A stretch of 64,000 nucleotides of DNA from Methylobacter sp. (GCA_036741905.1 DAINRH010000001.1:34617-98616); one strand, 5' to 3'; positions 12,528-32,124 are shown, numbered from the stretch's first letter. Program-made: numbers and translations. Notes: generated by a model not told the origin, from the sequence alone.

Positions 12528-12592
12528 GTCCCGACAACCGAGACTTCCTTAATGCCCGTCCAGGGAAAATTAAGGAAGTCCCGGAAGGCCGG
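12528..12592 (-). repeat. intergenic terminator-like hairpin element (family copy)
   Basis: Arms GACTTCCTTAAT/ATTAAGGAAGTC. The apex is a CCC-N5-GGG loop. The SD and ATG of 12282..12509 follow. Confidence 0.6.
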
Positions 12593-12607
12593 ATGAAAAA
12601 TCCATCC

Positions 12608-12659
12608 GAGAGAAAAACATGCCCCATAAGGAGAAAGTGTTTTTTCTCCCTGATGGGTG
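12608..12659 (-). repeat. intergenic hairpin element (second, tandem copy in the same gap)
   Basis: Sense strand: CACCC-ATC-AGGGAGAAAAAACAC...GTGTTTTTCTCTC. Confidence 0.55.
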
Positions 12660-12818
12660 ATTTAATTGAAGTATCTAACACAAGTACCCAGCGGTCACAT
12701 ACCTAAGATACTGGTAAAGGTAAAGCCAATTTGCATAATGTCACATCGACCAGATCCTCGTTTGCACGCTATAAAATAGCGATAAGTGAACCAATCCAAG
12801 CAACGCCATTAATCAAAT

Positions 12819-13055
12819 TCATAATAAACCTGCTTTTCTCAAACCATCTTCCACGCATTTATGAAGCGGTGATGGCGTGCAAGCAAAGTGCTGCAAGATT
12901 GAATTCAGCGTTTTATCATCAAGTTCAATGCCATAGTGTTCACGCGCAAGTTTTGCGGCTTGATACTCCGGCAAAGTCTCGTTGAGGATATTCTGGTAGT
13001 GCTCCGAGCACGCTTCCAGATCCTCGTCCAAAACATCGTCGGCTTCATTTAACAT
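12819..13055 (-). CDS. small acidic hypothetical protein (78 aa)
   Basis: ORF starting MLNEADDVLDEDLEACSEHY, with GGAGG upstream. Co-oriented in the array. Confidence 0.5.
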   Translation of the reverse strand: MLNEADDVLDEDLEACSEHYQNILNETLPEYQAAKLAREHYGIELDDKTLNSILQHFACTPSPLHKCVEDGLRKAGLL

Positions 13056-13063
13056 AAAACCTC

Positions 13064-13900
13064 CTAAGCAGCGTGAGCTACAAGCTTTTTGACTTGAACA
13101 GGACGATGTTCGGTAATTTCAACAACGTCATAATCCTCAAGAAGATTGATAAAATTGCTTCGGATAGAATCACATGCTGCATCAAACGCGCAAACCAGTT
13201 CAACACGATCGCGAAGACTTTCCATTGACCAATCTTCGGCACAAAAGTCCTCGCCCTGATCAATGCTTTTATTTGCCACCATTAATCGTGAAGGCGGAAC
13301 GCTGAAATTGGATCGAGGATTTCCACAAACACCACAGGCATTTGATAAGGAACAGTCTGCCAATTGAGATTTGAGCCGAATAATCACCGATAATTTCTCA
13401 TCATCTGAAATGGACAAGTCCTGAATTGTAGATTGCCCAAGATATACGTTAGGTAGCCAAGAATTCTGGCTTTTGAGTATTTCTTGAGCAATAACTTTTT
13501 CGTTATTGTCCTGAAAAGTTACCGGCGGCACTTTTTTGAAGTTCCGCTGAGAACAGGTAGGACAGTAACTAAGATGCCCGGTGAGTTGCAGATGAGAATC
13601 ATGCAAAACCAGATAACCGCTAGAACGTCCATTTGAACCAATGGTATAACGATGACCTTGCTCATAAGTAAAGTCGTCAATAGGACTTCTAATGTCATCC
13701 CAATAATCAACACCCAGTAATTCGTAAGCCTTATCATCCTGTGAAGACGACAAACCAAGACGGTGAAACTTGACATTATTGGCATAGGACGTTAGACGAT
13801 TCCAAGAACTCATGGTGTCGTAACGAAAATGCCCTTGTAAAAAACCTACCATTGCGGAACGGCTGCGACGGTCAACTTTCTTTTGATAAAATGGTGTCAT
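13064..13900 (-). CDS. hypothetical protein with two Cys pairs (possible Zn ribbon)
   Basis: 278-aa ORF with CPTCSQ and CGVCGN. Preceded by a hairpin element and SD. Confidence 0.55.
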   Translation of the reverse strand: MTPFYQKKVDRRSRSAMVGFLQGHFRYDTMSSWNRLTSYANNVKFHRLGLSSSQDDKAYELLGVDYWDDIRSPIDDFTYEQGHRYTIGSNGRSSGYLVLHDSHLQLTGHLSYCPTCSQRNFKKVPPVTFQDNNEKVIAQEILKSQNSWLPNVYLGQSTIQDLSISDDEKLSVIIRLKSQLADCSLSNACGVCGNPRSNFSVPPSRLMVANKSIDQGEDFCAEDWSMESLRDRVELVCAFDAACDSIRSNFINLLEDYDVVEITEHRPVQVKKLVAHAA

Positions 13901-13930
13901 GATGTTTCTCCTGCTTTGAAAAGTAAAAAG

Positions 13931-13980
13931 CGGGAAAAAACAATTGTCCCAGTGGGAAAATGAATTTTCCCGCGTGGGTG
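13931..13980 (-). repeat. intergenic hairpin element
   Basis: Arms CGGGAAAA/TTTTCCCG, apex TCCC-ACT-GGGA, 5' ACCC-ACG-CGGG. Upstream of 13064..13900. Confidence 0.6.
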
Positions 13981-14003
13981 AATAATATTATTTAAAGGTT
14001 AAA

Positions 14004-14426
14004 TCAATCGCCGGATATACTGTATCCAGTAATTGAAAACCGGTAAGAACCTGTTTCATTGCGATCAAGGCCAGAAGTAAAGTCCTCACGTACAAGACGC
14101 AATATTTCCTCCAAACCCGACTGCAAATCATCAGTTTCCTGACCTTCTATATCAGCGCTCAGTTTTAAGCCGGATGAATCGGCACATGGAGAATCAATGA
14201 TTTTTTCCAACCGAGTGATTTCCGATTTAGCTTGATCAAGAGCTTTGCTTAACTCGAAATAGCAAATTCCTAAATCCGGCCAGTCTAAAGATTCCTCCCA
14301 AACCGGTTCGCCTTCATCTGACACGCCAATAGCACTTAGTTCAATCGTTTGCTTAATCTCTAAAGACGCTTTGCAAACATTGATTAAAGTGCGTAAAGAA
14401 ACGCCTGGTATTGTGATAGTACTCAT
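14004..14426 (-). CDS. acidic hypothetical protein
   Basis: ORF from MSTITIPG (ATG 14426), D/E-rich. Preceded by a hairpin element. Confidence 0.5.
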   Translation of the reverse strand: MSTITIPGVSLRTLINVCKASLEIKQTIELSAIGVSDEGEPVWEESLDWPDLGICYFELSKALDQAKSEITRLEKIIDSPCADSSGLKLSADIEGQETDDLQSGLEEILRLVREDFTSGLDRNETGSYRFSITGYSISGD

Positions 14427-14445
14427 AGTGATTTCCAAAAAAAAA

Positions 14446-14493
14446 CCGGTAAACACTAATATCCGCGACGGGAAAGTGTTTCCCGGTCGGGTT
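14446..14493 (-). repeat. intergenic hairpin element
   Basis: Arms CCGGGAAACACT/AGTGTTTACCGG followed by T8. Upstream of 14004..14426. Confidence 0.6.
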
Positions 14494-14509
14494 AAATGAA
14501 AAGAATGAA

Positions 14510-16111
14510 TTAAGCAGCGGTTACCGAAGCAACTTTGCCGCCATCATCCAGGGTAATAACAAACGACTTGCTATTTAGCGATGGACAATTAAAAGAACTA
14601 GGTATCAATTTCTTCATTGCATCAGCAGGATCACTTGCGGTATTTGCGACAGTAAACGAGGAAAAAGCATAGACATCGGACTCATGCGTTGATTCCTGAA
14701 ACTCGTCGTACTCAGATTTATAGCTTGAAATCTGTTTTAGGATATAACCTGAAGCATCACCCTTTGGCACAACAGCTAAACCACTTTGATCTTCACCGTG
14801 GTAGAAAGCGGAGTCGGCAATTTCAACCACATCGTTGCCAATCTGAATTCGGTACGCGTCACAAAAATGCACATAGACCGTAGTCCACTCGCCTTCAAAA
14901 AGCGCTCCGTGTGATGCATTGACCAGTTCAGTCGTCAATTCTTCATCATCGAGATACCGAATCATAGGATAAATCCAGTGAGCATTATCAAGTCCATCGT
15001 TATAAATCAGGCTTTCCCTTTTCCATGCGAACATGTGCAAAGCAGAGCCTTCATTCTGCATATCATCATTAAAGTTAACAACTTCGCGACTTTCAACTTC
15101 TGATCTGGTCAATGCTTTGTCAGGGTGACGCGTAAAATCGCTATAGACTTCGGTGTCACACACAGGGTAATCGTCATATTCGTGAAGAACTTCACGAGGA
15201 ACAACGGGAACGTCATTAAGCAAGCTTAATAGTTTCCAGTGCTTCAGCGTGTCGTAAAAGAGCACAAAAACATCAGCAGGTGCTGTAGTTTTAAACAACG
15301 TAAAATGCTTCTCCATTTCTTGCGCTAAGACAGTCCTGACAAGAGCAATGACTTCTTTTTCATCAATAAGCTTATCCCGATCCGGTAAACGCGCATAAAA
15401 ACGCGAAGAATCAAGATGAATAACATGCTTCATGGAGACTCTATGGTTACTATACGACTTGTAAACGGGCAGGCCTTGTAAGTACACTTCAAAATCACGA
15501 ACAGTACTGTTCGAATTATCAACACCATCCAAATAGACGGCACCAATTTCGGTGTCTACGAAGTGAAGTCCTGAATCAAGCGCACATTTTCTATCAAGGC
15601 TTGTGCCGTTGAATTCAACTGGAATCGGAAAACCCTGTGCAAGCTGATTAAGCATGCTCTCGATTTGTTCGATTTCCAGATCAACGCCAAGCATTGTGAT
15701 AGCGGTAATGCCGTCCCAGTCAGTCACAGGTGATACGATGACAGGCTTGAACGACAGTACATCGTCAGTATTAACGGAAATACGACCGCTTTTACTGACA
15801 ACCGTCATGTGACGACAAGCAAATAAGGCGGACAAAAAGCCGATACCAAATGGATGCTCTTGAGCAACCACATCAGCGTCCCATCCGGATTCAGCGACAG
15901 TCAACAGGGTCTCGATAGAATCGATACCGCAACCATCATCAGTTACCCGAAGAATTTTGGTTTCAGGTGCAAACTCAAAAACGACTTGAGTCGCATTAGC
16001 GCGGCGGGCGTTTTGCATCAGCTCGCCAAGAACCGTGGTCTTATTGGTAAAGCTGAATTTCAAGCTTTTTACCAGGTTGGCTTGGTTAACTTTCATTGCT
16101 ACTTCTTTCAT
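14510..16111 (-). CDS. GHKL-superfamily (HATPase_c_3-like) ATP-binding protein
   Basis: ELMQNARRANATQVVFEF...LRVTDDGCGI are the N-box and G1-box of Bergerat-fold ATPases. GGAG lies 7 nt upstream of the ATG. Confidence 0.65.
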   Translation of the reverse strand: MKEVAMKVNQANLVKSLKFSFTNKTTVLGELMQNARRANATQVVFEFAPETKILRVTDDGCGIDSIETLLTVAESGWDADVVAQEHPFGIGFLSALFACRHMTVVSKSGRISVNTDDVLSFKPVIVSPVTDWDGITAITMLGVDLEIEQIESMLNQLAQGFPIPVEFNGTSLDRKCALDSGLHFVDTEIGAVYLDGVDNSNSTVRDFEVYLQGLPVYKSYSNHRVSMKHVIHLDSSRFYARLPDRDKLIDEKEVIALVRTVLAQEMEKHFTLFKTTAPADVFVLFYDTLKHWKLLSLLNDVPVVPREVLHEYDDYPVCDTEVYSDFTRHPDKALTRSEVESREVVNFNDDMQNEGSALHMFAWKRESLIYNDGLDNAHWIYPMIRYLDDEELTTELVNASHGALFEGEWTTVYVHFCDAYRIQIGNDVVEIADSAFYHGEDQSGLAVVPKGDASGYILKQISSYKSEYDEFQESTHESDVYAFSSFTVANTASDPADAMKKLIPSSFNCPSLNSKSFVITLDDGGKVASVTAA

Positions 16112-16140
16112 GGTTTATCTCCAAATTTCAATTAAAAAAA

Positions 16141-16186
16141 CCGGGAGACAAAACATTCCCACTGGGAAGTCGGTTCCCGGCGGGTT
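16141..16186 (-). repeat. intergenic hairpin element
   Basis: Arms CCGGGA/TCCCGG, apex TTCCC-AGT-GGGAA, then T7. Upstream of 14510..16111. Confidence 0.6.
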
Positions 16187-16457
16187 AAAAAATAAATCTA
16201 ATAAAATCGCATCACGGCTAAGCCGTTTCATAAGTATCACGCCGGAGCGCTTCATTGATTCCTTATTTAAAGTGCTGAACTGGCACTGCTCTTGAGTCCT
16301 CTTAGAGAACTACAAAAAATCGTCTTTCCACAATACTTAAACCAAGCACTCTGGAAAGACGGTAAAGGCATTATGCCAGTTACTGTCAAAATAGTAAGAT
16401 CAAAAGACGCTCAAATTACGCGTCTTTTGAGGGGGTAAAATTAACTCAGTTCGTGAG
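16185..16457 (-). repeat. ~270-bp structured intergenic module, copy A (upstream of the GHKL ATPase gene)
   Basis: Near-identical to 24840-25108. Contains hairpins CAAAAGACGC/GCGTCTTTTG, CGTCTTTCCA/TGGAAAGACG, AGTGC/GCACT and ACGGC/GCCGT. Confidence 0.85.
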
Positions 16458-16938
16458 CGAAAACTTCTGCTACGGACGAGATTGCTTTTAGCGGAGTTGC
16501 TTCAAGGTTGTCAAAGCCAACAAGACGGTACTGATTCATCCATGTGGATTCGCAATCGGAACATCTGACAAGACCCCACGCGGACAGTTCATCAGCCTCA
16601 ATGCCAACATTGGCCTGAACATTATTAGCGCCACAATTCGGACAAAATTGGCCGTCACGAGCAACATAATTTTCCTGTTGCTTATTGATTACAGGATATT
16701 CTGCATCAAACGCGGCAAAAACATCTGCCACACAAGAATCATTATGAATAATGGCCTCAATGTGACCAATAAATTCCGTGCCATCCTCAAGCATCGCTAT
16801 CTCGTCGCCATCGGCACCCTCAATATCGAAATCCTGAATAGCAACCTGAATGGGAGCGGAGGAATTCGAATAAATCGCTTGAACAATGCCTCCTTCAACG
16901 TGAATGACAAGACGGATTTGATTTGTATTTGTAGTCAT
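16441..16938 (-). CDS. hypothetical protein, paralog of 17035..17364, with a C-terminal 4-Cys region
   Basis: The MTTNTNQIRLVIHVEGGIVQAIYS N-terminus resembles the neighbouring gene. CPNCGA...CSDCES is present. Confidence 0.55.
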   Translation of the reverse strand: MTTNTNQIRLVIHVEGGIVQAIYSNSSAPIQVAIQDFDIEGADGDEIAMLEDGTEFIGHIEAIIHNDSCVADVFAAFDAEYPVINKQQENYVARDGQFCPNCGANNVQANVGIEADELSAWGLVRCSDCESTWMNQYRLVGFDNLEATPLKAISSVAEVFAHELS

Positions 16939-16963
16939 GGTGTTTTTCCAAAAAATATAAAAA

Positions 16964-17009
16964 GGGAAAACACCGGCCCGTCGAGGAAAGTTGTTTTCCC
17001 TGAAGGGTT
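16964..17009 (-). repeat. intergenic hairpin element
   Basis: Arms GGGAAAACA/TGTTTTCCC. Upstream of 16441..16938. Confidence 0.6.
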
Positions 17010-17034
17010 AAGTCAATCTAAGTGAGTTATTCGC

Positions 17035-17364
17035 TCAATTGAGTATTGTGGTTGCTTTCATAACACTGAGCGCAATAGGCATCGCCAAGTCTTTTTGCTG
17101 TTTGTCGACCATGTGAATTTCTTCGTCAAATGCCGCAAAAACTTCTGCCACATAATTAGAATCATCCATGGAAGTGACATCATCGAGAGCGACAAACTGA
17201 TCACCATTGGTGAGTGTTACAAGCTCGCTATCATCGGCGCCATCTGCCATATCGTAATCCGCAATAATAAACCTTATAGGTACCAATGAGTCCGAATAAA
17301 CGTCTTTCACAAGTCCTTCTTCGACGCGGATAACGATACGGATTTCATTTGCATTTGTAGTCAT
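17035..17364 (-). CDS. acidic hypothetical protein, paralog of the N-half of 16441..16938
   Basis: MTTNANEIRIVIRVEEGLVKDVYSDSLVPIRFIIADYDM compares with MTTNTNQIRLVIHVEGGIVQAIYSNSSAPIQVAIQDFDI. Confidence 0.55.
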   Translation of the reverse strand: MTTNANEIRIVIRVEEGLVKDVYSDSLVPIRFIIADYDMADGADDSELVTLTNGDQFVALDDVTSMDDSNYVAEVFAAFDEEIHMVDKQQKDLAMPIALSVMKATTILN

Positions 17365-17390
17365 GGTGCTTCTCCAAAAAATAAAAAAAA

Positions 17391-17434
17391 GGGAAACACT
17401 ATGCCCATCAGGGAAGTGTTTTCCCTATTGGGTT
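17391..17434 (-). repeat. intergenic hairpin element
   Basis: Arms GGGAAAACACT/AGTGTTTCCC, apex TCCC-TGAT-GGG, then T8AT6 and GGAG. Upstream of 17035..17364. Confidence 0.65.
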
Positions 17435-17480
17435 AAGTCAATCGTGGTGAGTTATAGCTTATGAGCGTGACGTTTATAAT

Positions 17481-18701
17481 TTAAGATGGTTTGTCCTGGC
17501 TTTGGGCCATACGTGTAACACTATCTTTCTCGTACCACCGACTGTTCCGGTAGTCCTCATCACCGATTTCGTCAACCAAAAAGCAGTCAATGTCATCAGC
17601 AAATTCCTGGTCAGATCCTTTGTTAAACAAAGCATTCAGATCAACCAACACCTCGGCCTTTTGAATCGCATCAACATGGCTTTCAGCTTCAATATCGCAT
17701 ACCTTGACACGCACAATGGCGTAGATGTGGACGTTGTGTTTTTTGACACCATTGCTGGAAGATGGGACGGTATACAGCAACCGTTTTTCAACCAGCATTT
17801 CCTCAGTAATGTCGACCAACTGGTCAACACAAAAGAATTCGAGAATCGACTCTTTAACGCTGACATAGTGCGGCCCAACATGATCAGTCAACCCGTAAAC
17901 GAGTTCATCGCTTGGGTAGTTGTCATCTTCCAACTGATGAATCACTTCAGCAGACAAGGCAAGAACGCGATCGGTAACATCAAGATCACAAGCGCCATCA
18001 ATATCCATCGCGGTGTCGTGAACCCAAGCCTGCGGCTGGAAATGAGCAATGACGCGCCGATCATCAACGACTTGAACGTCTACAGGTAAAACTTGATACC
18101 TGTTGTTATCGGCTAATTCGGCTTGGCTTAGTAAAACACTTACACCAAGCGGAAAATTAACCGAATAACAGTGCTCTTGTCCGAACAATACATGACAAAT
18201 AACCCCATCTGCATTAGGCCCGGTAAAAACATCCTGGTCAGAGTCAGTGTCCGAAGTTTCGCCTTGAATGGAGATAAGTCGAGTTCCAACAGGAAGATGG
18301 ATCAATTTAGTATCGTCACCAATGCTCTCATAACACTGAGCGCAATAAGCCTCATTAAACAAGGTAGTAACTTTTGCTCTGCACTGGTCACAAGTCCAAT
18401 AAGGCTTATCGAACGTAAAATCCTGATATTCCCAGTTGTGCCGGGCAGCAAGATTTTTTGCCAGAGTGCGAAGATCCTCAAGATTAGACATACCAGCATC
18501 AGCGATACAATAAGCCTCATTATTGAGATTTCTTGTATAAGCTGAGAAAAATTGAGGATTATCGTCATCAACTTCACAAATGGTTTCATTCGCTTCGGGA
18601 TCGAATTCGCCTTTTACCCCGTGAATCTCAATGCTCACGTAAAGCTCGGGCTTGGATTCAAGAAGGCTGGTATATTGGTCAAAATATTCATCATCAAACA
18701 T
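17481..18701 (-). CDS. hypothetical protein (about 406 aa)
   Basis: Long ORF. The start MFDDEYF at 18701 has GGAGAACC upstream. CDQCRAKV...CAQC Cys pairs are present. Confidence 0.55.
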   Translation of the reverse strand: MFDDEYFDQYTSLLESKPELYVSIEIHGVKGEFDPEANETICEVDDDNPQFFSAYTRNLNNEAYCIADAGMSNLEDLRTLAKNLAARHNWEYQDFTFDKPYWTCDQCRAKVTTLFNEAYCAQCYESIGDDTKLIHLPVGTRLISIQGETSDTDSDQDVFTGPNADGVICHVLFGQEHCYSVNFPLGVSVLLSQAELADNNRYQVLPVDVQVVDDRRVIAHFQPQAWVHDTAMDIDGACDLDVTDRVLALSAEVIHQLEDDNYPSDELVYGLTDHVGPHYVSVKESILEFFCVDQLVDITEEMLVEKRLLYTVPSSSNGVKKHNVHIYAIVRVKVCDIEAESHVDAIQKAEVLVDLNALFNKGSDQEFADDIDCFLVDEIGDEDYRNSRWYEKDSVTRMAQSQDKPS

Positions 18702-18723
18702 AAGGTTCTCCAAAAAATAAAAG

Positions 18724-18776
18724 CGGGAAACCCAAAGCAACCCAATTGGGAAACGATTAGAGTTCCCCTGGTGGGT
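18724..18776 (-). repeat. intergenic hairpin element
   Basis: Apex CCCAATTGGG with imperfect GGGGAAC/GTTTCCCG arms. Upstream of 17481..18701. Confidence 0.55.
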
Positions 18777-18787: not shown

Positions 18788-19072
18788 TTAAACAGACTTT
18801 TCCATGTAAAACATTTCAAAGACGTCATCAAATTCTTCAAACATCGAGTAAAAATTCTTCGGAGCATAAAGATCCTTGAATTCTTTCAACGCTGCTGTAG
18901 TGGACTTTCTTTTACGACTCAACCAAACTTTTTTAATACCGGGTTGCTCGCAAAATGCCGTTATTGCCTTTCTGATTTCCAATTGCTTGGTAAAGCCAGA
19001 GCCATTGTTATTCCAATAGCTGGCAGCATCTTTCGGAATCGTTTTCAGGTTGTGGACAATTACTTTTTTCAT
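18788..19072 (-). CDS. hypothetical protein
   Basis: ORF from MKKVIVHNLK, preceded by a hairpin element. Confidence 0.45.
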   Translation of the reverse strand: MKKVIVHNLKTIPKDAASYWNNNGSGFTKQLEIRKAITAFCEQPGIKKVWLSRKRKSTTAALKEFKDLYAPKNFYSMFEEFDDVFEMFYMEKSV

Positions 19073-19094
19073 CTTCGTAGTCTCTCTAGAAAAA

Positions 19095-19140
19095 CGGGAA
19101 ACCACATAAGCCCAATAGGGAATGTGATTCCCGGTTGGGT
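19095..19140 (-). repeat. intergenic hairpin element
   Basis: Arms GGGAATCACAT/ATGTGGTTTCCC, apex CCCT-ATT-GGGC. Upstream of 18788..19072. Confidence 0.6.
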
Positions 19141-19200: not shown

Positions 19201-19392
19201 TTAAATTTTGGAGCTTAGTGTTTTACGAAACATACCCGCAGCATCAGTATCAAGATGGTCGGCAAAAATATCATCGCCATCCACCAAAACATGAGTGCCA
19301 TCGTCATTGTTTGTGTAAGTAAAGCCCGCGTTGTATTCATCGCACAAATCAGCCAGTTTCTTCAAAAACTCGGATTGCTTTTCAGTCAGCAT
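19201..19392 (-). CDS. small acidic hypothetical protein (63 aa)
   Basis: ORF with AGGAG upstream. Co-oriented. Confidence 0.45.
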   Translation of the reverse strand: MLTEKQSEFLKKLADLCDEYNAGFTYTNNDDGTHVLVDGDDIFADHLDTDAAGMFRKTLSSKI

Positions 19393-19410
19393 AAATTCTC
19401 CTAAGAGATT

Positions 19411-19446
19411 GGGTTAAAAACCGGCTAATCGAAAGTGATTAGCCAG
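19411..19446 (-). repeat. simple hairpin variant of the intergenic element
   Basis: GGCTAATC/GATTAGCC stem followed by TTTTTAACCC. Upstream of 19201..19392. Confidence 0.45.
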
Positions 19447-19459: not shown

Positions 19460-21364
19460 TCAAGCTGCCAACAAATTGCGGCTGATTCTGAATAGCTCAG
19501 AACGCAACTCGGACACGTTGTTTATACAGATCGATTGATCAAATAAATGACTCGTGTCGAAACAGATGCCCACGCCTACAAGCTCAATCCCGGACGATTC
19601 GCAGCGCTTGATAACGGCTTTTGCGGCACATTCATCGTCAGGCTGTCCATCGGTCAACACCATAATGACTTTCCGTTCTTCACGGGTAGCAATCACGGAT
19701 GATGCGGCATACCACAAAGCGGCATGAAGCGGTGTACCTCCATTGGTAACAGCCGAGAATGCAGAAGCATTAGGACGAACCTTTTGCCCATGTTTCAACA
19801 GCGGAACAACATCATCAGAATCACCAAACGGGAATCGCGTCACGGCAGGATTAACGCCTGAAATACCTTCAAGTGCCAATGCCAATGCCATAGAGGATTC
19901 GATGGCTAATTGAATCAGCCTACGATTTGAGTCCGTACTGTAAATTCCATTCATTGAGCCTGAACAATCGACCAGCAAATGAATGGCGGTATTAGGTGCC
20001 TGCTTATGACTCCTGCGTTCGAAAACACGAGCATCGCCTTGAATCAAGCGCGACAGTTTCCGTCCATCAATACGATTACCCGAGCGTTTATTCACGGAAC
20101 GATCACAACGACTGGATTGAACCAGACCTTGAAGCGAAGCGCGAATTTTGCCGGAGTCACTTAAAACCTTATTCATTAAGTCGTTCCCAACAGAAGAATT
20201 CCGGTGAGGATCCATAGCGATGGGCATGTAAATATCAGCATCGTAACTATTGCGAGATTGACTGCCTAAAAGCTCTTGAACAGCTTCAAATATATCTTGA
20301 GGCACATCATCTTCACTGGCTGATAAAACAGAAGCCAGGGCTTGCAGCGTGTGCTCGCTATCCTGATCTTGTGAATCATCGGCACCACTACCAGTAGAAT
20401 CAGCATGACTCTGTCCAGATTGAGAATCTTGATCTTGATGATCGGTATCAGCGTCGTTCTGAGAACCTGCGCCTTGACTTTGATCTTGATCGTCCTGTCC
20501 AGATGCATCCTGATCTTGAGCGGATTGACTGTCATCAGTATCTTGATCGGGTTGAGAATCATCACCTTGCGACTGATTATCCTGTGAAGAATTGCCGGAG
20601 CTTGGATTGGTTAAGTCATCATCCTGATCATTATTGCTTTGTCCAGATTGAGATTGTGACGACGAATCATCACTTCCTTGTCGCTGAGACTGGTTAGACT
20701 GCTGCTGTTGACGCGCTTTCTCCTGCTCAATTTCCTGCTCTTCTTCAATCATGCGCAAGATGCGGTCGGCAAGCCGAACACAGTCACGCGTTACTTGAAA
20801 CTCAGGGACTTCAGATAAAAGAGCCACAAGTCTTGTTACCGCACCCACTGGAAAAGTATCTTCTAGTAATGATTCTGCGGTGTCTGCATACGACGCTAGA
20901 GCAGTTTGGCCCAAGACATCGTTACGAAGACGAAACAACAAAAACTGCGACAAAACGTCAGCTGGATGAATCTGTTCATTTTGACCGATTATTTGAAATC
21001 CACCGGTTTGAACAAGATACTCAACCACCTTCTCAGTAGTCCGTTTAGTGCCTGGATAAGTATTCTGCATTAATTTCTCAATACGGATATCTTCCAGGAT
21101 GTTGACGATACTTCTCCGAATAGGACTGGTAGCTGCTTTACGAAAATCAGTAAATTCGGTAAACCGAACATGAGCTGCTTCATGTGCCAAATAGCCCCAT
21201 GCCACATCCTTGTAAGACGGATCTTCAAGGTTGTAAGCTGGCAAGTTAATCGTATTTCCATCTGTATACGCATCAGAACCGCCAACTTTAACTTTGACGC
21301 CAAATTTGTTACCCAGTGCAGCGGCAACGATAGGGAATGCGTTATTCAAACTTTGATTTTTCAT
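19460..21364 (-). CDS. CobT-like von Willebrand factor A domain protein with an HEXXH motif and an acidic Q/S/D-rich linker
   Basis: LAHEAAHVRF is an HEXXH motif. VDCSGSM...GGTPLHAAL...VLTDGQPDD is a vWA MIDAS-like motif. The low-complexity DQDSQSGQ tract spans about 20300-20700. Confidence 0.7.
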   Translation of the reverse strand: MKNQSLNNAFPIVAAALGNKFGVKVKVGGSDAYTDGNTINLPAYNLEDPSYKDVAWGYLAHEAAHVRFTEFTDFRKAATSPIRRSIVNILEDIRIEKLMQNTYPGTKRTTEKVVEYLVQTGGFQIIGQNEQIHPADVLSQFLLFRLRNDVLGQTALASYADTAESLLEDTFPVGAVTRLVALLSEVPEFQVTRDCVRLADRILRMIEEEQEIEQEKARQQQQSNQSQRQGSDDSSSQSQSGQSNNDQDDDLTNPSSGNSSQDNQSQGDDSQPDQDTDDSQSAQDQDASGQDDQDQSQGAGSQNDADTDHQDQDSQSGQSHADSTGSGADDSQDQDSEHTLQALASVLSASEDDVPQDIFEAVQELLGSQSRNSYDADIYMPIAMDPHRNSSVGNDLMNKVLSDSGKIRASLQGLVQSSRCDRSVNKRSGNRIDGRKLSRLIQGDARVFERRSHKQAPNTAIHLLVDCSGSMNGIYSTDSNRRLIQLAIESSMALALALEGISGVNPAVTRFPFGDSDDVVPLLKHGQKVRPNASAFSAVTNGGTPLHAALWYAASSVIATREERKVIMVLTDGQPDDECAAKAVIKRCESSGIELVGVGICFDTSHLFDQSICINNVSELRSELFRISRNLLAA

Positions 21365-21390
21365 GGTCTATTCCTAAAAATAAAAAAATA

Positions 21391-21434
21391 GGCAAACCAT
21401 GACCCAAAGGGGCTATGTTTGCCCCTAGTGGGTT
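21391..21434 (-). repeat. intergenic hairpin element
   Basis: Arms GGGGCAAACAT/ATGGTTTGCC, apex CCCC-TTT-GGGT. Upstream of 19460..21364. Confidence 0.6.
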
Positions 21435-21590
21435 AAAAACTAAAAATATCTGTCAAGGGAAATAATAATCCCCAATAGTTGATTCAGTGTTTTTCAAATC
21501 ATCAAAAAATTTTATAAGTTTTTTAGATAGCTCAAACAATCCAGGATCAGAATGCAATCGCGAACATTCAATAGCAGCTGGTAAAATGAA

Positions 21591-21640
21591 GGCGGGGCAA
21601 CAACGCAACCCATACGGATTGAATTGCAACCCGCCGGGTG
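21591..21640 (-). repeat. possible degenerate hairpin element just after the DUF3150-like gene stop
   Basis: Sense strand begins CACCC-GGC-GGG. GGCGGG/CCCGCC forms the outer stem. Confidence 0.35.
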
Positions 21641-22958: not shown

Positions 22959-22985
22959 ATCTGCTTCTCCAAAAAAAGTAAAAGT

Positions 22986-23032
22986 GAAGAGACAGATTGC
23001 GTCCCATCAGGGCGAAAAATGCCCCTTCTGGG
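22986..23032 (-). repeat. intergenic hairpin element
   Basis: Sense strand: ACCC-AGA-AGGGGC...GCCC-TGAT-GGGAC, then a T-rich run and GGAG. Upstream of 21654..22958. Confidence 0.5.
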
Positions 23033-23051
23033 TAAGTAAAAAATTAAAAGT

Positions 23052-23797: not shown

Positions 23798-24769
23798 CTA
23801 TTCTCCCCAAGCATCACCGAAAACGTCTTTGGCAATGCGATGGATAGCTTCACGTTGAGTCGGCTCTGCACGTAATGTGAGCGCACGGTCCAACGAATAC
23901 GCCAGCGCATTAGGAGCGCGTTTGTAAGCAATCATCAAGTTCGTCCAGCGCACCAGAGTCCGTGTGGACATCGTAACGCTTAATTCACCTGAGCTGTCAG
24001 AACCACCGACAAAAAGCCGACGGATTTCATTAGCGACCTCAATCATTTTATCCGTCAAATTTCCCATAACCGCATCAACAGAAATACCCATGCTAACAAG
24101 CGCCGCTTGCAGGATGGACTTCTCAATAGAAGCTTCAGGATAACCGACTTCCATTAATCTGAACCGATCCAAAAATGCAAGGTTTTGCTGCATGATGCCT
24201 TGATAAAGACCGCTTTGATCACCTTGACCTGCGGAGTTGCCGGTAGCGATCAGACGGAACTTAGGATGAGGTTTAATCACTTCACCGCCGTTTTGAGGAA
24301 TGACCAAAGGTTGCCCTTCGATAATATCGTTCAAACCAGCGAGTTCAGAGGGATCCATCAAGTCGATTTCATTCAAAATCAACAGATGACCATCGCGAAC
24401 AGCTTGAGCAAGCGGACCCTGCATAAAAGACATGGAACCATTGACAAGCATAAATTGACCAATAAGATCGTTCAGCTCAAGACGACCATGACAGGTGACT
24501 TGATTAACGGGCCAATTCAAGCGAGAAGCAACCTGGCAGATCAGCGAGGTTTTGCCTGAACCGGTAGGGCCAGTCAAATACAGCGCATCGCCGAGAGGAT
24601 TGGCAATAAATGCCAAGACATCGCGTAGATGTTCATTTCTGAACACATACTCTTTATTGGCTGGAATTAAAGGATGCAGAGCATCTTTAAATCCTTCAAC
24701 AGTCATTGCGGCAGGAGCCACAATGCCAAAAGTTGAACCAATCGCGAATTTTTTAGTTTGAGTAGTCAT
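23798..24769 (-). CDS. CobS/MoxR-like AAA+ ATPase (AAA_5)
   Basis: Walker A LTGPTGSGKTS, Walker B LLILNEIDL, then FRLIATGNS. Confidence 0.75.
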   Translation of the reverse strand: MTTQTKKFAIGSTFGIVAPAAMTVEGFKDALHPLIPANKEYVFRNEHLRDVLAFIANPLGDALYLTGPTGSGKTSLICQVASRLNWPVNQVTCHGRLELNDLIGQFMLVNGSMSFMQGPLAQAVRDGHLLILNEIDLMDPSELAGLNDIIEGQPLVIPQNGGEVIKPHPKFRLIATGNSAGQGDQSGLYQGIMQQNLAFLDRFRLMEVGYPEASIEKSILQAALVSMGISVDAVMGNLTDKMIEVANEIRRLFVGGSDSSGELSVTMSTRTLVRWTNLMIAYKRAPNALAYSLDRALTLRAEPTQREAIHRIAKDVFGDAWGE

Positions 24770-24789
24770 AGTGTTTTCTCAGATTAAAC

Positions 24790-24842
24790 CAGAGAAAACA
24801 CACAGTTCCCAACCGGGAAAAATGAATTTTCCCCAGTGGGTT
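24790..24842 (-). repeat. intergenic hairpin element
   Basis: Sense strand: ACCC-ACT-GGGGAAAA-TTCA-TTTTTCCC-GGTT-GGGAAC. Upstream of 23798..24769. Confidence 0.55.
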
Positions 24843-25108
24843 AAAAAATAAATCAAATAAAATCACGGCTAAGCCGTTTCATAAGTATCACGCCGGAGCG
24901 CTTCATTGATTCCTTATTTAAAGTGCTGAACTGGCACTGCTCTTGAGTCCTCTTAGAGAACTACAAAAAATCGTCTTTCCACAATACTTAAACCAAGCAC
25001 TCTGGAAAGACGGTAAGGGCATTATGCCGGTTACCGTCAAAATAGTAAGATCAAAAGACGCCCAAATTACGCGTCTTTTGACTGGATAAAATTAACTCAG
25101 TTCGTAAG
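24840..25108 (-). repeat. ~270-bp structured intergenic module, copy B (upstream of the CobS-like AAA gene)
   Basis: Aligns end to end with copy A with few substitutions. It even includes the ...AACTGAGTTAA gene-end string. Confidence 0.85.
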
Positions 25109-25133: not shown

Positions 25134-25496
25134 TTAGTATTCCGAAGGCAGCAACAGAACGTCGTCGAACAAATAAAAGCTCCAGGTCCCCTCAATCAAA
25201 GTTGTGGATGGCACATGCTTTGATTTCAGTTCTTTACTATCGCCATCTTTGACAACGATTATGCAAGATCCATTTTGAGACTCCACCGTAATAAACAAAA
25301 ACGTCTGATCCTTTAGCATTGGGAAGTACTCGGTCGCAATAACATCCAACAGCCAATAGCTTTCGGTTTGCTCCGCAAAATACTTGACGCCATCGGTGTA
25401 TGTCATCGCAGGCATCAACGGGTGTCTATACCAGTGTTCCGTGCCAATAAACTGCATCAGCTCAGAGTCCAATGCTTCTTTTCGTAGTGTTTCCAT
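25134..25496 (-). CDS. hypothetical protein (possibly DUF6876-like)
   Basis: 120-aa ORF with FIGTEHWYRHPLMPAMTYTDGVKYFAEQTESYWLLDVI. The family assignment is from memory only. Confidence 0.45.
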   Translation of the reverse strand: METLRKEALDSELMQFIGTEHWYRHPLMPAMTYTDGVKYFAEQTESYWLLDVIATEYFPMLKDQTFLFITVESQNGSCIIVVKDGDSKELKSKHVPSTTLIEGTWSFYLFDDVLLLPSEY

Positions 25497-25522
25497 GTGA
25501 ATCTCCAGGTAAAAGTAAAAGA

Positions 25523-25571
25523 CCGCAAGAAACGCAACATCCGCAAAGGATGAGTGTCTTTGCGGAAGGTT
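25523..25571 (-). repeat. intergenic hairpin element
   Basis: Arms CCGCAAAGACAC.../...GCGTTTCTTGCGG. Upstream of 25134..25496. Confidence 0.5.
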
Positions 25572-25663: not shown

Positions 25664-26014
25664 TTAGCAGATAGCTAATGCCTGTTTCGCAAAATCATGA
25701 GCAGAGTCAATTTCACCTGCAAGCAAGGCCTGGCACGCATAAAACGCAAATTCCTTTCGCTTTATAGCTTTAACGGAGGCATCGGGTTCTGGGAACGCCG
25801 AGACTTCTTCAGCACTAAAACGCAAGGTTTCGCCGTTCACTTCTTCGAAATCATCGAATAGCAAAGGCATATTTTGGGTGTTATCCCAAATAGTGCTTTC
25901 ATCAAATGCAGTCTGGGCCAATTGCTTGGCGGATTCGGCATCTGTCGCGGTTACACCCACAACAACGCGGTGGGTGTAGTCAATTTCGTATGTGACAGCG
26001 AATTTTGTAGTCAT
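25664..26014 (-). CDS. hypothetical protein
   Basis: 116-aa ORF preceded by a hairpin element and AGAGGA. Confidence 0.5.
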   Translation of the reverse strand: MTTKFAVTYEIDYTHRVVVGVTATDAESAKQLAQTAFDESTIWDNTQNMPLLFDDFEEVNGETLRFSAEEVSAFPEPDASVKAIKRKEFAFYACQALLAGEIDSAHDFAKQALAIC

Positions 26015-26041
26015 GGTTATGTCCTCTAAAGGTTTAAAAAA

Positions 26042-26083
26042 GAGGCAACTATTCCCAATGAGGACGTTGCCCCTTATGGGGTT
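26042..26083 (-). repeat. intergenic hairpin element
   Basis: Arms GGGGCAACGTCC/...AGTTGCCTC. Overlaps the TAA stop of 26082..26423. Upstream of 25664..26014. Confidence 0.5.
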
Positions 26084-26423
26084 AGTGAGGTTTTCTATTT
26101 TGGATGGATTCGAATTTGCCTAAAACAGCATCACGAATGTCATTAGGATCCAATCCAGATACCTTGCAGCAGTTGATGAAACTGAAGGGATTTAGATCGC
26201 CGATGTTCGTCAGCCAGTTGTATATTTCAACAACCGTTTTCATTGAACATCTATTGTCAAACAGATTGTGTAACGAATCTTCCAGAAGACAATCGCAGAT
26301 ATGCGCAATTTCTGTATCAGTCCAGGGCGGTACTTCTTCAGGCAAGGTCTCTGTGCTTTGTAGCCACAGCCATTGATCATCGAACAAGTCGAGATTTAGG
26401 CTACGATCAAAACCTCGTCGCAT
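26082..26423 (-). CDS. hypothetical protein
   Basis: 113-aa ORF preceded by a hairpin element and GGAGG. Confidence 0.5.
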   Translation of the reverse strand: MRRGFDRSLNLDLFDDQWLWLQSTETLPEEVPPWTDTEIAHICDCLLEDSLHNLFDNRCSMKTVVEIYNWLTNIGDLNPFSFINCCKVSGLDPNDIRDAVLGKFESIQNRKPH

Positions 26424-26439
26424 GGTGCCTCCAAAAATT

Positions 26440-26485
26440 CGGGAAACATATGCGCCCAGTCGGGGTCAGTGTTCCCCGATGGGTT
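26440..26485 (-). repeat. intergenic hairpin element
   Basis: Arms GGGGAACACTGA/...ATGTTTCCCG, apex CCCC-GACT-GGGC. Upstream of 26082..26423. Confidence 0.55.
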
Positions 26486-26514
26486 AAGGTTAATGATGAG
26501 TTAAGGTTTTAGAA

Positions 26515-27516
26515 TCAAAACCAAAAATCACCGTCTGTAGAAGACATAATTTCGTCCATTGAGAACGGAACTTGTGCCTTTTCTTCGCCTTTAAGCGTAA
26601 AACGTGTTCGCTCAGTCGATTTCTTGCGGAAGGTTTCCAAAAAAGCGGGATCAACATCGGGATGCAGGGCCATTAATGCAGCCTTGTAGTCGATATTACC
26701 TTGCGTAAGATAGCGATTGATTCTAAGACCACTGCTTTCGGCTTGAGCATAATCACCCATTAATTTAAGGAGATTTTTCTCGATATCAGCCTGCTGTTTT
26801 TCATAAGGTTTAATCTTGGACGCGAAGTCCTTAATTATTTCTTCAGCACTGTGATAATTTGCTGCCAGCACGTTCCATTGATCAATTTCCAGTCCAGACG
26901 GAATGAAGATGTCACGATCAATATCAGTCGCTGGTGGCTGATTTTTCAACAAATAATCAGCAAACTTTCGACCCTCGATAATCAAACTATCAATGACCAA
27001 ATCATTCTTTTTAATCAAAAAGTCTAAAGGCGGCTCCTTATCGTTCAAATAAAACGACAAATAACCTTCATTAGTTCCAGCGACTACAATCTGCTGCTGA
27101 ACTTGATAGTAATAACGCCTATAAACTTTCGATTTAGTGCCATTTTGCTGCGCATCTCGAAAATTAACTTCCATTGGAACTTTAAGTTCTACAGGAATTC
27201 CATCATCGTTCAACCCATCAAAAGAAGCCCTTAGAAAAGGATGATCTTCTGATTCTGCACATAACGGTAAAACTATCGTGTTATGACGATTTTCAAAAGA
27301 CCTTCGAGCTGTTGCCTCAAGTCTAATTCCTCTTTGGACAAAGGGATTACTGTCCAGATTATCTGGAAGAGTAATTCCCTTCTTCTCGTTGTATAAACGG
27401 TAAATTGTCTTTAAAGGACATTGTCCAAGAACAATAATTGCTTCTGATGCAGAAACACCCAAATTGCGCCATTGGTGCCATTCGGGCGTGCGCTGTTGAA
27501 GATTAACGACTTTCAT
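26515..27516 (-). CDS. YqaJ-type (lambda Exo-like) recombination exonuclease
   Basis: MKVVNLQQRTPEWHQWRNLGVSASEAIIVLG is a YqaJ N-terminal signature. GGGAG lies 6 nt upstream of the ATG at 27516. Sits next to bet and ssb. Confidence 0.75.
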   Translation of the reverse strand: MKVVNLQQRTPEWHQWRNLGVSASEAIIVLGQCPLKTIYRLYNEKKGITLPDNLDSNPFVQRGIRLEATARRSFENRHNTIVLPLCAESEDHPFLRASFDGLNDDGIPVELKVPMEVNFRDAQQNGTKSKVYRRYYYQVQQQIVVAGTNEGYLSFYLNDKEPPLDFLIKKNDLVIDSLIIEGRKFADYLLKNQPPATDIDRDIFIPSGLEIDQWNVLAANYHSAEEIIKDFASKIKPYEKQQADIEKNLLKLMGDYAQAESSGLRINRYLTQGNIDYKAALMALHPDVDPAFLETFRKKSTERTRFTLKGEEKAQVPFSMDEIMSSTDGDFWF

Positions 27517-27554
27517 AAAAGACTCCCAGTAAATAATGGGCGTCATGAAAAAAA

Positions 27555-27586
27555 CCAAGTGGGCTTTCAGTGACGCCCAACGGGTG
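27555..27586 (-). repeat. short hairpin variant
   Basis: Sense strand: CACCC-GTT-GGGCGTCACTGAAAGCCCACTTGG followed by T7. Upstream of 26515..27516. Confidence 0.45.
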
Positions 27587-27597
27587 AAAGTAATTAG

Positions 27598-27732
27598 TTA
27601 ACCAAGAACGGCTCTAACAATATCAATTACATTTCCTTCTGGAAACGCAGCTCTTCCTAATAATGAAACCAGAAAAACTGATGAAAATAAAAAAGCTGAA
27701 ATTAGGCCAAAAATTAATTTAAGAATACTCAT
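27598..27732 (-). CDS. 44-aa hydrophobic peptide (single TM), below the ORF-track cutoff
   Basis: Translates to MSILKLIFGLISAFLFSSVFLVSLLGRAAFPEGNVIDIVRAVLG*. AAGGA lies 6 nt upstream. It has its own hairpin element at 27754-27799. Confidence 0.4.
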   Translation of the reverse strand: MSILKLIFGLISAFLFSSVFLVSLLGRAAFPEGNVIDIVRAVLG

Positions 27733-27753
27733 GACAATCCTTTAAATAATGAA

Positions 27754-27799
27754 GGGCATCATGAAGTCCCGAGGGGCATACATGATGCCCTGTAGGGTT
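27754..27799 (-). repeat. intergenic hairpin element
   Basis: Perfect 10-bp arms GGGCATCATG/CATGATGCCC, apex CCCC-TCG-GGAC, 5' ACCC-TAC-AGGG. Upstream of the 44-aa ORF. Confidence 0.65.
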
Positions 27800-27808
27800 A
27801 AAAGTAGA

Positions 27809-30851: not shown

Positions 30852-31223
30852 GTAAATTACGCATTCAATCCAAGTTGAGCAAAGTTTGCCACCTTCAGGT
30901 GTAATGATTTCATCGGCGTAAACAAATTCAAGCCCATCCATATCGGGATGCTGATTAATGATACGAGACCATCCATCAACTCCGACAACAGGAACGATAC
31001 CGTTCTGTTTATCGGGATACGCATAGATTTCCTTGGTAAACGGATTTAAACCGTACTGATCAGCAACGATCAATAAAGCAGTCATCTGTTCATCGCTAAC
31101 AACGCCGTCTTTAACCTTAAAAGCCGTAGCCTTCAAAGTGTCGATCAATTTTTGTTCGTCCGAAAAACTAAATTTGTCAGCGAATTTTTTGAACAGTGAA
31201 TCTTTTTTACTAGTGCTACTCAT
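30852..31223 (-). CDS. bet: Bet (Red-beta family) recombinase, exon 1
   Basis: LIVADQYGLNPFTKEIYAYPDKQNGIVPVVGVDGWSRIINQHPDMDG parallels lambda Bet LIVANQYGLNPWTKEIYAFPDKQNGIVPVVGVDGWSRIIN. GGAG lies upstream of the ATG at 31223. The exon ends ...CVIY immediately before GTGTG. Confidence 0.85.
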
Positions 31224-31249
31224 GGTGTACTCCAAAAATAAATTAAGAA

Positions 31250-31290
31250 GGGACACCAAAAGTCCCAAAGGACAAATGGTGTCCCAAGGG
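31250..31290 (-). repeat. intergenic hairpin element
   Basis: Arms GGGACACCA/TGGTGTCCC, apex GTCC-TTTG-GGAC. Upstream of bet exon 1. Confidence 0.65.
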
Positions 31291-31369
31291 AAAGTAAAAA
31301 TCAGCTAAGCCTAATAAAACGAAACGGCGCTAAACTTTAAAAAAGCTGATAAATTAAATAACCTGACCA

Positions 31370-31849
31370 TCAAAATGGTATGTCGTCGTCAAAATCATCG
31401 TAAGCAGGTCCATCATAAGCAGGAGGTGCGGAATGAGAATTAGATTGTGACGAAGTAGGCCCGGTGGAAGATGGCTGCGAAGGTGAAGATCCGGTTGAAG
31501 ATGATCCTGAAGAATCGTTCGGTTTTCCGCCTAACATTTTCATTTCGGTAGCATGGATTTCAGTCGAGTAACGATCCTGGCCGGATTGATCCTGCCATTT
31601 ACGTGTACGAATAGGACCTTCAAACAGAGTTAAAGAGCCTTTTTTAAGATAGTCCCGCGCAATTTCAGCAAGCTTTCCAAAAAGAATAACACGATGCCAT
31701 TCAGTTTTTTCTTTACGTTCACCTGAAACTTTATCTTTCCAGGATTCTGTAGTTGCAAGACTGATAGTGGCTACAGCTTTACCTTCTTGAGTAAAACGGA
31801 TTTCTGGGTCTGAGCCTAAACGGCCGATAACTTGAGCTTTGTTGTACAT
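31370..31849 (-). CDS. ssb: single-stranded DNA-binding protein
   Basis: [39 protein letters not shown]...[16 protein letters not shown] is an OB fold. There is a G/S/P-rich linker and an acidic tail DDFDDDIPF. Confidence 0.95.
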
Positions 31850-31881
31850 GGTAAATCTCCTTATTAGACAAAAAGAAAAAA

Positions 31882-31921
31882 GGAGACCATTGCCCTGGGG
31901 GAAATGATCTCCCAGAGGGTT
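31882..31921 (-). repeat. intergenic hairpin element
   Basis: Arms GGAGATCAT/ATGGTCTCC, apex CCCC-CA-GGGC. Upstream of ssb. Confidence 0.6.
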
Positions 31922-32057
31922 AATTCGACGTCAATGCTTCGATTTGGGCGTGACGATTGTTGATTAAAGCAGTGTATGTATCCAAATATTGCTTGGCAGC
32001 AGACAAAGCGGTTTCCATGCTGAACATCAGTACAGCAAAAATCAGTAACTTTTTCAT
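31920..32057 (-). CDS. 45-aa peptide with a signal-like N-terminus, first ORF of the leftward array
   Basis: Translates to [51 protein letters not shown] lies 7 nt upstream. Below the ORF-track cutoff. The 92-aa track ORF 31864..32142 is in another frame and looks spurious. Confidence 0.35.
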
Positions 32058-32079
32058 AGTGTATTTCCTTGGGTAAAAC

Positions 32080-32124
32080 CAGGGAAAACACATGAGCCCA
32101 GCAGGGAGTGTTTCCCTGGAGGGT
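32080..32124 (-). repeat. intergenic hairpin element
   Basis: Arms CAGGGAAACAC/GTGTTTTCCCTG, apex CCCT-GCT-GGGC. Upstream of the 45-aa ORF. Confidence 0.65.

Follow-up and report, generated by a model that had tools for sequence, protein, structure and literature searches.

How can an operon be read through when almost every one of its genes is preceded by what looks like an intrinsic terminator? The question is raised by a 64,000-nt stretch of DNA from Methylobacter sp. (GCA_036741905.1, DAINRH010000001.1:34617-98616; hereafter the window, with positions counted from its first nucleotide), in which a plasmid operon array of 20 kb lies on the minus strand and a hairpin element recurs in its intergenic gaps. 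The first-pass annotation, made from the sequence, described this hairpin as looking like a strong terminator set paradoxically inside an operon. The hairpin is real, but it is only one of two mutually exclusive folds of a module of about 75 nt that precedes almost every gene of the array as a cis-acting mRNA leader; the other fold, in which the 3′ arm of the hairpin pairs with the Shine–Dalgarno sequence (SD) and start codon downstream, had been missed. We argue below that each copy probably acts as a translational attenuator. The paradox largely dissolves, since a 5′ hairpin locks up the 5′ arm of the terminator and its 3′ arm is taken by the SD and start.

Read on the minus strand, nearly every gap follows the layout first described: a T-rich flank, (A)ACCC, three or four nucleotides, a GGG-bearing arm, an apex of CCC-N3-5-GGG, the complementary arm ending in CCC, a T-rich run, the SD and the ATG. 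The module is composed of six segments, “a” to “f”. Segment “a” is (UU)AACCC, “b” is GGG followed by a variable arm, “c” is the complement of that arm followed by CCC, “d” is GGG, and “e” is the complement of the whole of “b” and ends in CCC; a U-rich run then separates “e” from “f,” which consists of the SD and the spacer to the AUG. Comparison of the copies shows that “f” resembles “b” of its own copy and is complementary to its own “e,” as in CUGAGAAAACACU-AUG against GUGUUUUCUCUGG at 24.8 kb, CCAAGGAAAUACACU-AUG against GUGUUUUCCCUGG at 32.1 kb, and GGAGCAAGCC-AUG against GGCUUGCCCC in Methylomonas DH-1. On the 5′ side, the first nucleotides of “b” pair with “c,” the strand of the apex that carries the CCC (GGGCAU/AUGCCC, GGGGC/GCCCC, GGGAA/UUCCC), and the leading ACCC of “a” is complementary to the apex GGG of “d”.

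These complementarities give each module two mutually exclusive registers. In register 1, a:d closes b:c and is followed by the e:f hairpin, in which the U-run forms the loop and the SD, often with the AUG, lies in the stem; in register 2, b:e and c:d form the terminator-like hairpin, followed by the U-run, and both “a” and the SD are unpaired. The helices are 8–12 bp plus 3 bp long, and the register 2 hairpin has an apex of 11–18 nt in which a mini-stem of 3 bp is nested. Loops and internal loops vary, and constancy is limited to the CCC/GGG clamps and the UUAA flank. The 5′ flank is U-rich and nearly free of G, with the consensus UUAACCC, and has A at position −1 in 57/63 copies, which pairing does not account for. 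The 8 nt past the b:e stem contain from one to seven U, with a mean of 5.1 in the window; in the plasmid of Methylomonas DH-1, which is richer in GC, this U-run is weaker and e:f is retained. The clamps can be read as SD/anti-SD echoes passed down a chain, from GGAG in “f” to CUCC/CCC in “e,” GGG in “b,” CCC in “c,” GGG in “d,” and CCC in “a”.

The element occupies nearly every gap of the array, in about 22 copies as had been claimed: 18 are matched by the covariance model and four variant or degenerate copies were recognized by eye. All five pairs of arms quoted previously, at 27754, 31250, 17391, 32080, and 12528, are present at those positions. A loose regular expression run over the 64-kb window finds 17 minus-strand copies, all of them in the interval from 12.5 to 32.1 kb; the plus strand and the rest of the window have no independent copy. 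The covariance model gives 17 matches at E ≤ 0.004 and a marginal one at E = 0.06; every one of them falls within the array on its coding (minus) strand, and the remaining 44 kb of the window are free of copies. Structured, covarying, and tied to gene context, the element is not a repeat of the REP/BIME type: its copies share the orientation of the genes, run up to their start codons, differ in their arm sequences, and occur, in the searched loci, only in this array. Against Rfam 15 no family reaches the gathering threshold for the element and none appears even at E ≤ 1, the only families matched being those of group II introns.

The covariation of the arms was borne out as well. Alignments made with MAFFT only were too rough in the arms and were replaced by two covariance models and by alignment-free tests of cognate against non-cognate strands. 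For b:e (register 2) the covariation score is 0.367, against 0.225 ± 0.013 after shuffling (0/500 reach it) and at most 0.216 for slid partners; for register 1 the score is 0.275, against 0.173 ± 0.010 (0/500) and at most 0.145, respectively. The e:f helices have both-sided changes at all nine pairs. Model-based alignments are biased toward the structure to which they were fitted, and the alignment-free test is free of that bias. Over the 67 copies from the window and three plasmids, which were used for tests of energy and of pairing specificity, cognate duplexes average −14.8 kcal/mol for b:e (non-cognate −7.9), −12.9 for e:f (−7.7), and −10.5 for b:c (−8.0), and the cognate partner ranks first among the 67 in 27, 20, and 7 rows, respectively, where chance would give about one. 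The cobT copy and its orthologue in the Methylobacter plasmid (L001) differ by a triple compensatory change (C to U in “b,” G to A in “c,” and G to A in “e”), direct evidence that “b” pairs with both “c” and “e”.

In 60/67 copies register 1 is the more stable of the two, with a median difference of −6.7 kcal/mol. The minimum free energy (MFE) fold of the full length, from “a” to AUG+3, is register 1 in most copies, and in most MFE folds at least 8 of the 17 nt around the SD and AUG are paired; fold z-scores are between −2.5 and −5.8 for 10 window copies. With “e” paired to the SD and start codon, the main function would lie in translation initiation and not in transcription. The reading we favor, with fair but by no means full confidence, is that each copy is a modular cis-acting translational attenuator in which a sequestor, e:f, competes with an anti-sequestor, b:e, and in which the lock hairpin of a:d and b:c would also keep the terminator within the module from forming. 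The analysis computed the energies, the sense-strand preference, and the three complementarities with their covariation; attenuation of bet is taken from the SXT literature.

The folding order and the role in anti-termination we infer from the energies. The a–d hairpin would form first during transcription and withhold “b,” so that the terminator hairpin would not be formed as RNA polymerase crosses the U-run. Once “f” has been made, “e” would pair with it, and translation of the next cistron would be attenuated, register 1 being the putative ground state. Expression would then need a shift to register 2, in which “b” captures “e” and the SD is freed, and the 3-bp a:d helix would act as a lock on that shift. 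Such a design would be a natural one in which the anti-terminator and the SD sequestor use one common strand. The genes of the array without a copy have stop and start codons that overlap or abut, which makes the module the standard entry point for independent translation initiation.

Alternatively, the modules could be conditional intrinsic terminators in the first place, each junction shedding a set fraction of transcripts through b:e and the U-run to give graded polarity, with a–d tuning the leak and SD pairing being secondary. Taken alone, the b:e hairpin and its T-run do look like an intrinsic terminator: the GC-rich base of b:e adjoins the U-run in many copies (with at least five U in the next 8 nt in 46/67), covariation of b:e is strong, and before “f” is transcribed, when the U-run is being made, the terminator-like fold is more stable than the a–d hairpin in 62/67 copies, by a median of 6.2 kcal/mol. 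However, it is not the fold predicted to be adopted, as the a–d hairpin is made first and the other register is the full-length MFE in 60/67. The refolding barrier from the a–d hairpin to the terminator fold is estimated, as an upper bound, at about 17.5–18 kcal/mol, and at about 11 kcal/mol without “a,” so that a:d behaves as a lock keeping “b” unavailable. The U-tract is uneven, many copies having a poor one or none, above all those of the GC-richer plasmid that keeps e:f, and its strength shows no correlation with the hairpin energies; furthermore, f–e covariation reaches the AUG, which termination does not need. Measured against the usual terminator criterion of a 3–8 nt loop and an adjoining U-tract, the element has a GGG/CCC stem base, one to seven U in the next 8 nt, and a long nested loop, owing to which a simple terminator scanner missed nearly all copies; the ordinary terminators of the array are plain hairpins, unlike the element. 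Finally, the orthologous SXT array has been described as one large operon (PMC4344509), with bet and exo highly transcribed (PMC4542580). As a primary role, termination is thus unlikely in our view; graded polarity and regulated antitermination are possible as secondary roles.

A second alternative is that the modules serve processing or stability, the polycistronic RNA being cut by RNase E where the flanks are rich in U/A or by RNase III within the helices, with the hairpins capping the ends and a cut between “e” and “f” freeing the SD. The RNase III sites between the genes of T7 and the 5′ stabilizer hairpins of the ompA type are precedents. Both flanks of the element are indeed U-rich, G-poor single strands beside stable hairpins, a cut before AACCC would put the a–d hairpin at the very 5′ end, and b:e is preferred by about 6 kcal/mol once “e” is separated from “f”. 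The helices, however, are too short for canonical RNase III substrates, which are about 20 bp long, and the RNase III sites suggested in the first pass were accordingly set aside; either hairpin would protect an end, so that a three-way covariation is not required; and the match of “f” to “e” in every copy is unexplained unless translation control is also the point. We regard this alternative as decidedly unlikely.

The last, that the repeats are DNA-level hairpins that would serve, in strands unpaired during transfer or replication, as signals for priming or recombination or as ssDNA promoters, suits an array encoding ssb, recT, exo, and a toprim primase and repeats that are also inverted repeats in DNA, but is very improbable, as folding is more favorable by 2.2 kcal/mol for the sense than for the antisense strand (Wilcoxon p = 8e-4), the sense fold having about twice the G.U pairs (160 against 87), which become C.A mismatches on the other strand, as the SD and ATG lie within a covarying helix (this and the strand preference placing the element's action in mRNA, not DNA), as in ten loci the copies are set at a constant distance before start codons and nearly all in the coding orientation, and as the homologous array lies just downstream of traN in the plasmid loci L008–L011 and between traN and traF in SXT, away from oriT.

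Several points weigh against translational attenuation by a locked sequestor. Six to seven copies prefer register 2, including those of the window at exo (where the registers are about equal), 26014, and 12509, and the preference is inconsistent between orthologues of different plasmids. All energies come from nearest-neighbor models, and the barriers from nested direct-path heuristics that ignore proteins and pseudoknotted toehold routes; such routes are open, since the unpaired P2 loop can pair with “e,” and the barriers are therefore upper bounds. Were register 1 always formed and never left, the strong covariation of b:e would have no explanation; selection on this helix therefore means that register 2 comes into use and that a trigger must exist, for which the analysis yielded only the candidates given below. 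A ribosome relay, in which a ribosome at the upstream stop covers “a,” fits only about 9/57 copies (gap of 9 nt or less), the gap from stop to CCC having a median near 21 nt and a range of 0 to 105 nt, and could be a minority mechanism at most. Tuning of each copy by protein demand was likewise rejected: the ssb, recT, and exo copies of the window lean open, and their orthologues in the Methylobacter plasmid do not. Last, the identification of the SXT bet attenuator with this module is drawn from position, from the wording of the review, and from a weak match in R997 (E = 0.009).

For the attenuator we propose, candidate releases would be a factor or RNase acting on the single-stranded UUAACCC, protein S1 or the 30S subunit binding the U-rich loop together with unlocking, or, for a minority of copies, a ribosome terminating just upstream. 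In the non-coding parts of the window we found no candidate small RNA carrying GGGUUAA, and a Pfam search for an RNA-binding regulator among the small open reading frames (ORFs) shows no RNA-binding domain. Control by a leader peptide was rejected, as the only mini-ORF is confined to the promoter modules described below and varies from 4 to 46 codons without conservation of length. It is conceivable, though we hold it doubtful, that the approximately 20 modules form one post-transcriptional regulon, in which a single trans factor (a protein, nuclease, or RNA, encoded by the element or by the host) recognizes the UUAACCC lock strand and unlocks a:d. If so, that factor would flip every junction together from “read through, do not translate” to “translate,” and there would be a global RNA switch inside the recombination and defense-evasion array of SXT/R391, pAQU, pQBR55, and the methanotroph megaplasmids, as well as of IncC, for which we have the literature only. 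In any case UUAACCC offers a specific strand for seeking the trigger.

The closest relatives of the array are on Methylobacter and Methylomonas plasmids, and this block of genes recurs as the conserved array behind traN in MOBH elements: the SXT/R391 integrative and conjugative elements, pAQU2, pQBR55, and Pseudomonas and Azospirillum plasmids. The search model, built from copies of the methanotroph plasmids only, gives about 27 matches in Methylobacter sp. YRD-M1, 30 in Methylomonas AM2-LC, and 15 in Methylomonas DH-1, 8–10 in R997 (SXT/R391), including one before bet, and about 17 in pAQU2, 18 in the P. mandelii plasmid, and 11 in pQBR55, with a few in the Azospirillum plasmid. Nearly all run in the direction of the genes and stop at start codons, and the exceptions on the opposite strand are few and are weak or overlap a coding-strand copy; the traU and traN genes upstream of the homologous arrays (L009–L011) have no matches. 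In pALVIN02 of Allochromatium vinosum (L006, 1520-7975), the gaps contain a GC-rich hairpin, a U-run, and an SD whose region is again like the 5′ arm (CUGGAGACAG ... GCGUCUCCAU ... AUGGAGAUCC-AUG). These versions score poorly with the AT-rich model, and the family is therefore probably wider than the model shows.

This distribution gives the element a bearing beyond the plasmid at hand. The ssb-bet-exo-cobS-DUF3150-cobT block drives recombination between elements, and part of it is needed in IncC and SXT/R391 if the incoming element is to escape restriction and CRISPR attack in a new host (PMC7498323). The first-pass annotation recognized no described family, which is correct as far as Rfam is concerned but overlooks two instances: a strong translational attenuator upstream of bet in SXT, the gene being highly transcribed but its translation hindered (PMC4542580, citing Garriss 2013), and a predicted structure sequestering the ribosome-binding site (RBS) of vcrx089 in IncC (PMC7498323). 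Going by what these sources say of bet, the element belongs functionally with the SD-sequestering attenuators, of which one orthologous instance is known experimentally. It shares with the SXT/IncC attenuator the same ssb-bet-exo-cobS array, the location directly before a cistron, the sequestration of the RBS, and high transcription with hindered translation. It differs in that the attenuator is described, in these sources, for single genes and as one RBS-hiding stem-loop, and here there is a family of about 20 copies, to which are added the b:e anti-sequestor/terminator-like fold, the lock hairpin of a:d and b:c, and the conserved UUAACCC. No multi-copy, three-helix module was found in the searchable literature; neither the approximately 20-fold repetition nor the lock strand is described there, nor the dual design of terminator, anti-terminator, and sequestor, nor the wide occurrence among MOBH elements. 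From elements of Vibrio and Proteus to methanotroph plasmids nearly every cistron has the same three-helix toggle, where the cited accounts of translational control have a single stem-loop before bet or vcrx089. The element is thus a defined RNA family suited to an Rfam entry, and the attenuator would provide a concrete model for array genes that are “highly transcribed but poorly translated”.

The competing-helix logic is that of attenuation of the ermC/cat type. In ermC, helices 1:2 and 3:4, with the SD buried, compete with 2:3, in which the SD is free, and occupation of the first strand causes the flip. Unlike these leaders, the element lacks a conserved leader peptide (the internal copies have none) and is repeated before each cistron instead of occurring once per gene. 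As in riboswitch platforms and trp-type attenuators, mutually exclusive helices decide between termination and access to the SD, and the order of co-transcriptional folding matters; in contrast to riboswitches, there is no aptamer-like conserved core and there are no invariant unpaired nucleotides, the loops being variable because they must match “e,” and, in contrast to both, the antiterminator partner “c” lies inside the terminator loop and the terminator fold is the translation-ON fold. Register 2 has the GC-rich stem base and following U-run of an intrinsic terminator, but its apex of 11–18 nt is nested, it is not the stable fold in 60/67 copies, and it is located before start codons inside operons. 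With REP/BIME repeats and the T7 RNase III sites the element shares repeated intergenic hairpins within operons; it differs in not being dispersed, in its variable arm sequences, and in helices too short for RNase III. Masking of a translation start by pairing, relieved by refolding after processing or after binding of a protein upstream, is known from hok mRNA (metastable folding by tac and fbi), IS10 fold-back inhibition, and phage Mu com-mom, all of them single-gene systems with another architecture and no sequence relation to the element.

The array encodes ssb, recT/bet, a yqaJ/lambda-exo nuclease, a cobS-like AAA ATPase, DUF3150, a cobT-like VWA protein, an HATPase, and a toprim/zinc-ribbon primase. 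The recT/bet gene is split by a group II intron (minus strand, window 28300-30850; Rfam RF02012, RF00029), which carries a reverse transcriptase/maturase ORF of 581 aa at 28509-30254; the Methylobacter sp. YRD-M1 plasmid has an ltrA intron at the corresponding place. The array is composed of three sub-operons, each opened by the same promoter/operator-leader module of 120 nt.

The individual copies, all on the minus strand, are given from “a” to ATG+3; bits are covariance model scores, z is the fold z-score, and ddG compares register 1 with register 2. The copy before the first cistron of sub-operon 1, a 45-aa ORF, is at 32052..32124 (56.1 bits with model R1, E 1e-13; MFE in register 1, −30.7 kcal/mol, z −4.9). 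It is followed by that before ssb at 31844..31920 (32.9 bits), whose TAA-CCC overlaps the stop codon of the preceding gene and which is bistable, the MFE being the terminator-like fold and the centroid e:f (ddG −3.4), and by the positional counterpart of the SXT “bet attenuator” before recT/bet at 31218..31291 (34.7 bits, registers within 1.4 kcal/mol). Beyond the intron are the copies before a 44-aa ORF at 27727..27798 (26.5 bits, register 2 slightly preferred), the yqaJ/exo gene at 27511..27585 (19.5 bits, E 0.004, registers equal in energy), a 113-aa ORF at 26418..26484 (41.8 bits, register 1, z −4.5), and a 116-aa ORF at 26009..26082 (30.6 bits), where the preceding stop lies inside TAACCCC. 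A variant copy before the DUF6876 gene at 25491..25567, recognized by eye, has a b:c helix of 9 bp without a clear a:d (ddG −6.9).

Sub-operon 2 opens with the copy before the cobS-like AAA gene at 24764..24841 (62.5 bits, register 1, z −5.8), followed by those before the DUF3150 gene at 22953..23033 (48.7 bits, register 1, z −3.7) and the cobT-like VWA gene at 21359..21433 (60.9 bits, register 1, z −5.7). Between these two lies an orphan, at 21584..21639, found with the regular expression and by reading the sequence, which comprises “a” to “e” only and has no SD or gene after it; its counterpart in the Methylobacter plasmid (L001, 17375-17455) is followed by a gene of 145 aa, which suggests that a gene may have been lost here, leaving the 5′ half of the module. 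A degenerate copy before a 63-aa ORF at 19387..19446, seen by sequence reading and in the terminator scan, is a plain hairpin with TTTTTAACCC and an SD. Copies then precede a 94-aa ORF at 19067..19140 (47.8 bits), a 406-aa ORF at 18696..18776 (37.8 bits), a 109-aa ORF at 17359..17433, the best-scoring of all (71 bits, register 1, z −4.95, 69% of the ensemble), and a 165-aa paralogue at 16933..17008 (65 bits, z −3.4). The adjacent paralogous genes at 16441-16938 and 17035-17364 (minus strand, N-termini MTTN(T/A)N(Q/E)IR...) were duplicated together with their elements as a repeat family of 71% identity, and the arms of the two elements have since diverged with compensated changes.

In sub-operon 3, the copy before the first cistron, the HATPase gene, is at 16106..16185 (63.1 bits, z −3.9), and further copies precede a 140-aa ORF at 14421..14492 (54.2 bits) and a 278-aa ORF at 13895..13979 (62.8 bits). 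The array ends with two copies in tandem: an orphan at 12600..12658 (“a” to “e,” with no SD or gene; 15.2 bits, E 0.06) and a variant at 12504..12591 with 12-bp arms, GACTTCCTTAAT/ATTAAGGAAGTC, before a 75-aa ORF coupled to the primase gene, in which register 2 is preferred by 4.7 kcal/mol.

The three copies of the 120-nt module, found by repeat search at 32126..32245, 24850..24969, and 16199..16318 on the minus strand, are 93–100% identical, each lies directly upstream of the first element copy of its sub-operon, and the module is kept in the Methylobacter plasmid (L001), where the first copy is conserved. It contains the palindromes AGTTCTCTAAGAGGACT and AGTGCCAGTTCAGCACT, a TAAATA box, and an SD with ATGAAGCGC, and is probably an activator- or repressor-controlled promoter-operator with a leader. 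The sigma-70 consensus has no match in the modules, and a separate sigma-70 promoter for each gene was rejected, as the gaps have no matches and the total is below chance. A mini-ORF (MKRSGVILMKRLSRD...) starts in each module (window 32182-32054, 24906-24853, and 16255-16115, minus strand); in two of the three it crosses the whole element and ends at or over the ATG of the next gene (42 and 46 codons), the third having 17 codons, and in the Methylobacter plasmid it is only 4–9 codons long. Plain hairpins (AAAAGACGC...GCGTCTTTT) lie upstream of each module, at 16396-16442, 25047-25093, and 32328-32374, of which two close the preceding sub-operons; that at 25047..25093 (minus strand; repeat search and sequence) is the canonical hairpin terminator ending sub-operon 1.

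On the far side of the array, a 2372-aa ORF on the minus strand (3334-10452) has a signal-like N-terminus and repeats of the Big_9/PKD type, with a GC content of 0.49–0.53 as against 0.43 in the array, and there are no element copies in or around it. At the other end a Rep3-like gene diverges from the start of the array and is followed, on the plus strand, by a BREX-type defense island (36897-60655) with BrxC-like ATPase domains, an ATPase of the AAA_21/AbiEii type, a methyltransferase of the Eco57I/MmeI type, a Schlafen/AlbA_2 protein, and a pair composed of SIR2_2 and HerA (DUF87).

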